From a virus: DNA of 25,274 bases. The DNA is taken from the UHGV virus genome UHGV-0164608. One strand, written 5' to 3'. The notes under the pieces were generated by a model. It was given only the letters and a program-made list of their open reading frames with translations. It did no database searches and had not been told where the DNA came from. A program made the position numbers and the translations under genes. Below are positions 14,952-15,629 of the stretch, in pieces (positions within the stretch are counted from its first letter, which is position 1; each line of letters opens with the position of its first letter).

Positions 14952-15629
14952 CTAGAACGTGACAGCCTTGTCAAAGCCAGAAATAATTGTATAAGAAATA
15001 GACGAGTTATCAGCCTTGTTCACTTTGAACTTGGCACCTTTGTAAGCGATAACATCACTTCCTTTAGAATCTACAGAAAAATCTGTTGTAAATGCTGCAC
15101 GAGCCATATCGTTTGCAAATTCACGATAGGTGAACTTCATTACACCGCCTGCATTTCCATTGTATTCGATAGTCTTAACCAATGAGTTACTCACTCGACA
15201 CAGCCCATCAGGAACACGTTTGATAGAAATTTCTGATGCAGTATAAGAAGTGCCATTTGGCGGTGATATCTCATTTTTTGCAGCATCGTAACTAACATAA
15301 TCAACATAGTTACCGATTTGCCCATAGAGATTTTTTAACGCAACAGCTTGAGGGTTATGATAATTGCGATAAATTCCATTCCCCTCACTGCAATATGTAC
15401 CAGCAGCGATAGAAGACAATGCACCATTAGCCGCACCAAGTTCTAATACGTCCGTTTTAAATCCAGTAGCAGATGTGATAATGGGATCGCCCATGTAGGC
15501 GGTAGCACTTTGCCCAATAGCAGGCTTCACCACCTCAATAGCAGTGATATTTCGGTTAGAAGCATGTGGTACGCAACCAGTTAGGATTACAGCGAGAGAT
15601 ATTGGTAACGCTACATTATTAATTTTCAT
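14952..15629 (-). CDS. Putative lipoprotein, accessory (moron) gene
   Basis: 225-aa product with signal peptide and lipobox MKINNVALPISLAVILTGC, Val at +2, ends in Phe. No phage structural homologue recognised. Confidence 0.7.
   Translation of the reverse strand: MKINNVALPISLAVILTGCVPHASNRNITAIEVVKPAIGQSATAYMGDPIITSATGFKTDVLELGAANGALSSIAAGTYCSEGNGIYRNYHNPQAVALKNLYGQIGNYVDYVSYDAAKNEISPPNGTSYTASEISIKRVPDGLCRVSNSLVKTIEYNGNAGGVMKFTYREFANDMARAAFTTDFSVDSKGSDVIAYKGAKFKVNKADNSSISYTIISGFDKAVTF

Follow-up and report, generated by a model that had tools for sequence, protein, structure and literature searches.

The window analysed here is a stretch of 25,274 nucleotides of a viral genome (UHGV-0164608), and since its positions 12400-14700 match Klebsiella phage KP12 at 100% identity, the element from which it derives is assigned to the Fels-2-like P2 (Peduoviridae) prophages of Klebsiella. 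The gene under study encodes a predicted lipoprotein and has the following surroundings, given from high to low coordinates:

16330-18744, first in the reading order of the minus strand: gpA
16255-16260, minus strand: -35 element TTTACA of the promoter that carries the LexA box
16218-16237, minus strand: LexA box TACTGTAAATATAAACAGTG, which overlaps the -10 of this promoter; the window has no second LexA box
15988-16176, minus strand: TumA-like ORF of 62 aa (phrog_698), first gene of the SOS-controlled unit
15744-15977, minus strand: DinI-like (TumB) gene directly upstream of the lipoprotein gene (PF06183, E 1e-22; so annotated also in Fels-2 and E. coli)
14902-15745, minus strand: accessory cassette of about 840 bp with a GC content of 0.395, absent from P2-like prophages in which the slot is empty
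15656-15690, minus strand: T1, a hairpin with U-tract between the DinI stop codon and the ATG of the lipoprotein gene (dG -13.6 kcal/mol, z -2.3)
14952-15629, minus strand: lipoprotein CDS, 225 aa plus stop from an ATG; a member of phrog_1353 and orthologue of Fels-2 STM2726 and E. coli HS WP_000700647
15573-15629, minus strand: codons 1-19 of this CDS, the signal peptide and lipobox L-T-G-C, in which Cys19 is the predicted lipidated residue and Val20 is position +2
14824-14851, minus strand: T2, a hairpin with U-tract downstream of the lipoprotein gene (dG -18.8 kcal/mol, z -3.9)
14760-14778, minus strand: cos-like 19-mer GGCGTGGCGGGGATACGAG, just beyond which the similarity between related phages ends
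12422-14643: low-GC three-gene operon beyond cos, with gpQ and gpP next

The cos-like 19-mer resembles the cohesive ends of P2 and 186. The block from gpA to cos is about 98% identical between the window, Fels-2 and 4LV2017 (mean column identity), and an Rfam search of positions 14600-16400 returned no match.

The earlier note on this DNA had described a 225-aa protein at 14952-15629 with the lipobox LTGC and valine at position +2. The open reading frame exists exactly as claimed, and the lipobox is confirmed. An alignment with 22 close homologues shows four residues without variation, Gly18 and Cys19 of the lipobox as well as Cys80 and Cys144. The N-terminus of the protein reads MKINNVALPISLAVILTGC-VPH, also written MK-INNVALPISLAVIL-TGC, and displays the pattern of a substrate of SPase II and Lgt, that is a charged n-region, an h-region and a lipobox of the form [LVI][ASTVI][GAS]C. 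These elements are represented by a lysine in the n-region, a 12-residue h-region with a mean Kyte-Doolittle value of 2.4, and the lipobox L-T-G-C, and the product is predicted from its sequence to be a lipoprotein of the signal-peptidase-II type. According to the Lol rule in the Enterobacteriaceae, Asp at +2 is the signal for retention in the inner membrane. In the present protein Val20 occupies +2 and is followed by proline at +3, and because the +2 residue is not Asp, the outer membrane is by this rule the expected destination of the lipoprotein. The dN/dS of the gene is 0.05-0.08 in comparisons with the Fels-2 and E. coli alleles, and 38 synonymous and 7 non-synonymous differences separate it from the allele of E. 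coli NCTC9966, values that mark the gene as protein-coding and subject to strong purifying selection. A chance ORF is ruled out by this low dN/dS together with the four invariant residues.

The gene is already catalogued as an uncharacterised hypothetical, and its kind, the prophage lipoprotein moron, is already known. Along its whole length the protein matches phrog_1353 ('unknown function'), with residues 1-223 aligned to positions 1-230 of the 230-position profile at E 3.1e-105. A protein of 100% identity is encoded in 24 records of Klebsiella P2-like phages (4LV2017, KP12 and prophages of ST258, ST11, ST512 and ST437). Its amino acid identity is 99.1% to STM2726 of Fels-2 and 98.7% to the protein of Salmonella phage RE2010, and the gene for WP_000700647 of E. 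coli HS (prophage DuoHS) is 98.7% identical at the nucleotide level. Fels-2 STM2726, DuoHS WP_000700647 and phrog_1353 represent the same gene at the same site between DinI/TumB and cos, and nothing meaningful differs between them. The Fels-2 annotation gives the protein 243 aa with a start that lies upstream inside the hairpin, which is probably a mis-called start. The exact protein sequence is encoded by at least 1000 public contigs and is named 'Lipoprotein' in UniRef and 'hypothetical protein' at NCBI; its 90% cluster has an unrelated IlvE transaminase as representative, which is a clustering artefact. A profile scan of genome contigs with the lipoprotein family found a single locus. Searches with the lipoprotein matched no family in Pfam (E <= 0.1) or NCBIfam, and 0 families among the PADLOC-DB 2.0 defence models at E <= 0.1.

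That the gene is a stand-alone accessory gene in a variable region, as had been claimed, is well supported by comparison with related prophages. Of 5426 complete E. coli genomes, 1260 have at least part of the DinI/cos backbone, and only 50 of these 1260 carry the lipoprotein gene. In many of the E. coli genomes without it the slot between DinI and cos is empty, as exemplified by strain VE-V10-F, in which about 75 nt separate the DinI stop codon from the same cos-proximal backbone. Other genes may also occupy the slot, namely a 111-aa hypothetical protein in BL21(DE3) and a DUF4145 protein in SW070919, both in the opposite orientation, and a DUF8087 protein annotated in another E. coli strain. 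The cassette that contains the lipoprotein gene extends from the DinI stop codon on the right to the start of the conserved cos-proximal backbone on the left, and its GC content of 0.395 (about 0.40 for the gene) compares with 0.53-0.57 for core phage genes. In the sense of Hendrix and Juhala, a moron is recognised by a fixed junction, absence from close relatives, a composition that differs from that of the surrounding phage genes, and a promoter and terminator of its own. On the first three marks this low-GC cassette would largely appear to be one, organised as a stand-alone single-gene unit.

The claim that the gene has its own terminator did not hold. T2 lies outside the cassette, in the conserved cos-proximal backbone that is found in prophages without the gene as well as with divergent alleles, and it is therefore the right-end terminator of the phage and not a private one; in prophages without the lipoprotein it also ends the tum-dinI unit. 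DinI is located directly upstream in 50 of the 58 IMG/VR loci that carry the lipoprotein gene, at a distance of 116-117 nt in the 43 loci with a near-identical allele and of 141-148 nt where the allele is the 88% or the 79% one (7 loci), and cos follows 177 or 167 nt downstream of the gene. Since the 88% and 79% alleles hold this slot in divergent P2-like lineages, in which the adjacent DinI is only 37-84% identical, the association between the lipoprotein gene and the DinI-to-cos slot is old. The cassette occupies this right-end slot in P2 phages of the Fels-2 type from Klebsiella, Salmonella and E. coli. The slot is situated within the gpA-gpQ region, on the gpA side of cos. In P2-like phages this region is an anti-phage hotspot, and the great majority of the cargo characterised from it is directed against phages (Rousset et al., PMC9122126). 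WP_000700647 is entered for the hotspot in Table S5A of that study as 'hypothetical', with partners that vary (PMC9122126).

A scan for sigma-70 promoters upstream of the gene gave nothing convincing, the sole match on the minus strand being TTGTCA-18-AAAAAT, which overlaps the start codon. The best candidate found by eye, TTGTCA-N16-TCTAAT right after the dinI stop codon, is without the -11 A. The 79-80% alleles carry the promoter TTGATG-N17-TATGAT or TATGCT, in P2 and non-P2 contexts alike. T1 travels with the cassette and has been kept in the 88% allele, next to a DinI of just 37% identity. In a small sample of six sequences all 66 cells of its stem pair, with one compensatory change from C-G to U-A by way of a U.G intermediate; 70 of 500 shuffles gave the same score. 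T1 resembles an intrinsic terminator or an attenuator. Since a convincing promoter was not found in this allele, its transcripts would have to arise at a weak promoter or else begin at the tum promoter, which is under LexA control, and pass through T1. For S. Typhimurium with the Fels-2 prophage, STM2726-STM2727-STM2728 have been handled as one operon and STM2727 has been grouped with the LexA regulon (PMC2225428). All of STM2726-2728 were significantly up after treatment with the mutagen MX, 2.6- to 14.8-fold as a range for the three genes jointly (PMC2225428), fold changes that have to be read with the rise in copy number caused by prophage induction itself. Induction of DuoHS, the only P2-like prophage of E. 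coli HS and one that bears the same tum-dinI-lipoprotein block, has been found experimentally to need tum and a cleavable LexA (PMC12055606). In a lysogen, expression of the lipoprotein from this allele would probably be low, and during the SOS response the LexA-controlled tum-dinI transcript may read through T1 and thereby raise it.

The family to which the lipoprotein belongs is large. A profile search of 1.84 billion representatives returned 2434 clusters (formed at 50% identity) with E <= 0.001, of which 1256 reach E <= 1e-10; lengths are mostly 210-240 aa. Named members were found in Acinetobacter, Vibrio, Photobacterium, Pseudoalteromonas, Kluyvera, Geobacter, Desulfuromusa and one Planctomycetes MAG, and all are 'hypothetical' or 'lipoprotein' and without a Pfam domain; 54 diverse relatives matched no family in Pfam (E <= 0.01) or NCBIfam. 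A canonical lipobox is present in 234 of 276 full-length members (85%) and Asp at +2 in none. Exactly two cysteines occur in the mature part of 186 of the 262 sequences that have a length of at least 190 aa and a [GAS]C motif within the first 45 residues, which fits an oxidising compartment. In the protein studied here the mature part comprises about 206 residues with two further invariant cysteines, and an all-beta fold is confidently predicted for it by an AlphaFold2 model built on 54 sequences (17 strands, pLDDT 90.9, pTM 0.76). Structure-based homology, which the earlier note had named as a check, brought up no relative: three fold searches with a first model (pLDDT 80) found no structural relative, and a profile search of PDB sequences matched signal peptides only.

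Relatives of the gene are found in a variety of genetic contexts. In Acinetobacter Vieuvirus and in Moraxella siphophages the homologue occupies a moron site of the tail module just upstream of the tape-measure gene, where it adjoins either a toxin-antitoxin-like pair or exported proteins with a TonB_C domain, followed by a small membrane protein. Several neighbours of family members are likewise exported or membrane proteins. A Klebsiella homologue of 57% identity lies at the border of an island that has a serine recombinase and an AbiC-like gene, and homologues in Citrobacter and Pantoea prophages are found near OLD-family nucleases. Other sites are a mobilisable plasmid, a position beside a fimbrial operon and an integrase-adjacent position in Geobacter, and two chromosomal sites (Kluyvera and Photobacterium) are without an obvious mobile element. 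A 223-aa gene beside the plasmid-borne homologue is not a paralogue. This distribution has the appearance of a self-contained cargo gene that acts in the envelope and benefits the host, and not of a gene of the phage life cycle.

The lipoprotein would, then, act in the envelope and benefit the lysogen. The main reading of the data is that it binds or masks a conserved component of the outer membrane or periplasm and that other phages or envelope-targeting agents would be excluded in this way, a reading to which we assign a probability of roughly 0.35. Observations in its favour are the position of the slot in an anti-phage hotspot and the relatives on mobile elements near AbiC-like and OLD-like genes. 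In the literature searched, no functional test of the lipoprotein or of any family member was found, and the searches of Pfam, functional PHROG, NCBIfam, PADLOC and PDB sequences and the fold searches detected no sequence or fold similarity to known exclusion lipoproteins or defence proteins.

The best known exclusion factors of a comparable kind are T5 Llp and the Cor proteins of phi80, N15 and HK022, lipoproteins of the outer membrane that block FhuA and thereby exclude phages; T5 Llp has a second role in keeping progeny from sticking to debris. The present gene is like llp and cor in that these are accessory genes for phage-encoded, SPase-II-processed outer-membrane lipoproteins, properties that are here predicted, and cor sits in tail modules, as do the distant relatives of our lipoprotein. 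It is unlike them in that no similarity in sequence or fold is seen, its product has about three times the size of theirs, and in P2-like phages it is not beside the gene for a receptor-binding protein. DuoHS also differs in that its own receptor is an O-antigen and not a protein, and the data on this phage speak against blocking of that receptor. Capsule-less DuoHS lysogens, in which the gene is present, still adsorb DuoHS virions massively and lyse from without (PMC13622650). Virions of DuoHS, the receptor of which is the O9 O-antigen, are in addition trapped on lysis debris (PMC13622650). Adsorption both to capsule-less lysogens and to debris argues against self-exclusion of the Llp type, the simplest form of the superinfection exclusion that the earlier note had proposed by analogy, and against protection of the progeny, but not against exclusion of other phages; the receptor of the carrier phage itself is probably not blocked by the lipoprotein. 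A further-reaching version of the exclusion reading, in which the family would stand for an exclusion or immunity factor of a new class that works at the envelope, is traded by prophages, plasmids and islands and has a conserved outer-membrane component as its target instead of the carrier's own receptor, is considered unlikely.

The main rival to exclusion is that the gene serves lysogenic conversion or fitness in a manner unrelated to exclusion, comparable to Bor or TraT, with effects in serum, bile, antimicrobial peptides, stress or adhesion; we regard this as possible, if somewhat doubtful. TraT of F-like plasmids is a lipoprotein of surface exclusion and serum resistance, and both TraT and Bor have Pfam models. 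Similarities to TraT are the size of about 220-240 aa, the outer-membrane location predicted here and the carriage on mobile elements, including at least one plasmid-borne homologue in the lipoprotein family. With Bor of lambda the gene shares that it is a prophage moron for a putative outer-membrane lipoprotein, action on host surface properties being a feature of Bor. The breadth of the family, with its 2434 clusters and with chromosomal sites in Kluyvera and Photobacterium that bear no mobile-element signature, speaks for such a factor, as do the member on a mobilisable plasmid and another beside a fimbrial operon, and the ordinary chromosomal contexts of some members suggest that the ancestral role may be unrelated to phages. 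Amino acid conservation of 99-100% in prophages of clinical Klebsiella ST258, ST11 and ST512 and in Salmonella, and the DuoHS data with their lack of self-exclusion, are also in line with a fitness role. However, the lipoprotein matches neither Bor, TraT nor any other Pfam family, it is much larger than Bor, its predicted all-beta fold has no detected relative, and its site lies inside a hotspot in which the characterised cargo is overwhelmingly anti-phage.

It may also be proposed that the gene is a helper of the lytic cycle coupled to induction, co-transcribed with tum-dinI in the SOS response, and that the resulting change of the envelope keeps progeny off debris or tunes lysis. The gene is co-oriented with the LexA-controlled tum-dinI unit and lies 114 nt downstream of it without an evident promoter of its own, STM2726-2728 all rise after mutagen treatment, and the position between DinI and cos has been kept by the 88% and 79% alleles of divergent P2-like lineages. 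However, T1, which moves with the cassette, parts the lipoprotein gene from dinI, and the 79-80% alleles have a promoter of their own (TTGATG-N17-TATGAT). The gene is furthermore absent in about 96% of the E. coli prophages with this backbone, relatives reside on plasmids, islands and chromosomes, and DuoHS virions stick to debris and to capsule-less lysogens despite the gene, which together render the lytic role quite improbable.

The earlier note had kept the gene apart from the three-gene operon beyond cos. This separation stands, as cos and a terminator intervene between the two. The opposing view, that the lipoprotein and the operon form one multi-gene defence system, could draw on their distance of about 300 bp, their low GC content and their common location in the gpA-gpQ hotspot, but in the packaged linear genome they are located at opposite ends. 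In addition, the 800 nt beyond cos hold 27 different cargo clusters among 51 lipoprotein-bearing loci, including STM2723.1 in Fels-2 and a retron reverse transcriptase in 4LV2017, and the three-gene operon itself has its sole match in Klebsiella phage KP12 (megablast against 50,697 phage records). A joint system is hardly credible in the light of these co-occurrence data, by which it is effectively refuted. Since the same lipoprotein adjoins 27 different cargoes, the gene is to be seen, as these comparisons suggest, as a stable separate unit beside a defence hotspot that turns over rapidly. It resembles P2 tin/old and the gpA-gpQ cargo in belonging to a cos-adjacent variable region that is swapped in and out between near-identical prophages. 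It differs from this cargo in lying on the gpA side and in being far more stable, with one allele family against 27 cargo clusters, and also in its predicted export to the envelope, being not of the cytoplasmic nuclease or abortive-infection type and without a PADLOC match.

An o-spanin is a small outer-membrane lipoprotein whose gene lies within or beside the i-spanin gene in the lysis cassette. A role as conserved structural or lysis component of this sort, which a phage-encoded outer-membrane lipoprotein might bring to mind and for which the earlier note had seen no resemblance to a P2 structural protein, has a negligible probability and is ruled out by a separate i-/o-spanin pair (phrog_89 and phrog_952, at 4599-5027 and 4466-4756) that lies 10 kb away with the endolysin in 4466-5915, by the size of the window's own o-spanin, of which about 60 residues match phrog_952 as compared to 225 aa here, and by the dispensability of the gene, which is absent from most P2-like prophages and is also found on plasmids and chromosomes.

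Here, the lipoprotein gene of the DinI-to-cos slot emerges as an ordinary but reasonable lead, a fair experimental target and not a surprise. Genetic tools for its study already exist in DuoHS and in Fels-2 of strain LT2. The gene belongs to a large family that lacks a curated Pfam or NCBIfam model and whose members are found time and again in accessory positions on mobile elements. The exact protein is present in P2-like prophages of the epidemic carbapenem-resistant Klebsiella clones ST258, ST11, ST512 and ST437 and is represented in Fels-2 and DuoHS. If the lipoprotein alters the outer membrane, a factor acting at the envelope would join a hotspot in which the defence systems known to date are cytoplasmic. 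In that case it could also affect host range in phage therapy, serum resistance or the vaccine-relevant surface of these Klebsiella clones.

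The hairpin lying between the DinI stop codon and the lipoprotein ATG (15656-15690, minus strand) retains its pairing through all substitutions observed among the alleles in L025, L062 and L064. One C-G pair is replaced by U-A, with the U.G intermediate also present, and wobble changes are seen at three further pairs. Because pairing persists through these substitutions, the hairpin points to a functional RNA structure, a terminator or attenuator, that travels with the lipoprotein cassette. The RefSeq annotation of Fels-2 has the orthologue STM2726 (L001 4947-5678) at 243 aa, starting 54 nt upstream within the hairpin/U-tract. 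The start kept across alleles is the later ATG, which yields a 225-aa protein whose lipobox occupies residues 16-19, and the upstream 243-aa start is probably mis-called.

Lipoprotein alleles of 79-80% identity (in the IMG/VR P2-like contigs L066 and L068, and in L026) carry a promoter of their own, TTGATG-N17-TATGAT/TATGCT, which is conserved across P2-like and non-P2 contexts, whereas the Fels-2-type allele of the window has the hairpin in its place. The two allele types are therefore probably under different regulation.

Searches for homologues are affected by a clustering artefact. The 90%-identity cluster of the protein collection that contains the exact 225-aa lipoprotein has 1023 members, but its representative is a branched-chain amino-acid transaminase (IlvE) of 308 aa that is unrelated to the lipoprotein (E 0.84 in BLASTP between the two); matches at 100% are thereby missed.

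Homologues in Acinetobacter siphophages are found in an envelope moron cluster. In an A. gyllenbergii prophage (L018 3390-5949) and in phage Ab1656-2 (L004 5962-6907) the homologue is followed, after a 1-nt gap, by a gene for a membrane protein of 87-90 aa with apparent transmembrane segments. In L018 the homologue is also preceded by a pair of exported proteins with TonB_C domains, of which one is itself a lipoprotein, and the homologue with its exported and membrane neighbours is located directly upstream of the tape-measure gene.

The features of the window surrounding the lipoprotein gene are as follows:

12422-14643, minus strand: three-gene operon between cos and gpQ, low GC (0.36)
16218-16260, minus strand: near-perfect LexA box TACTGTAAATATAAACAGTG and promoter, the box overlapping the promoter -10
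21495-22091: CI repressor gene, flanking the 558-aa gene
22112-23788, plus strand: 558-aa gene, low GC (0.38), matching PADLOC PD-Lambda-1
23872-24924: integrase gene, flanking the 558-aa gene on the other side

The promoter overlapped by the LexA box TACTGTAAATATAAACAGTG belongs to a tumA-like/dinI (tumB) pair, and together they constitute the SOS induction switch of the prophage; as in PsP3 and Fels-2, the switch is divided between two ORFs. The slot between DinI and cos, where the lipoprotein cassette sits, holds other single genes in P2-like prophages of E. coli: a 111-aa hypothetical in BL21(DE3) (L014 1906-2241) and a DUF4145 protein gene in SW070919 (L015 1797-2537), both in opposite orientation, and, by annotation, a DUF8087 protein in strain 1504D004. 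These alternative occupants make the slot a second, small site of variation adjoining the main hotspot.

Beyond cos, the three-gene operon falls within the published gpA-gpQ defence hotspot of P2 (PMC9122126). Its proteins match phrog_12777, phrog_11490 and phrog_9664, all of unknown function, and had no match in Pfam or PADLOC; the only megablast match to the operon among 50,697 phage records was Klebsiella phage KP12. The operon is a candidate for an unnamed defence system. The cI-int interval is a second defence cargo slot of the prophage, occupied by the 558-aa protein with DUF4041 and T5orf172 domains (PD-Lambda-1, E 7e-120). Judged by position, its gene probably shares a transcript with cI and int in the lysogen.
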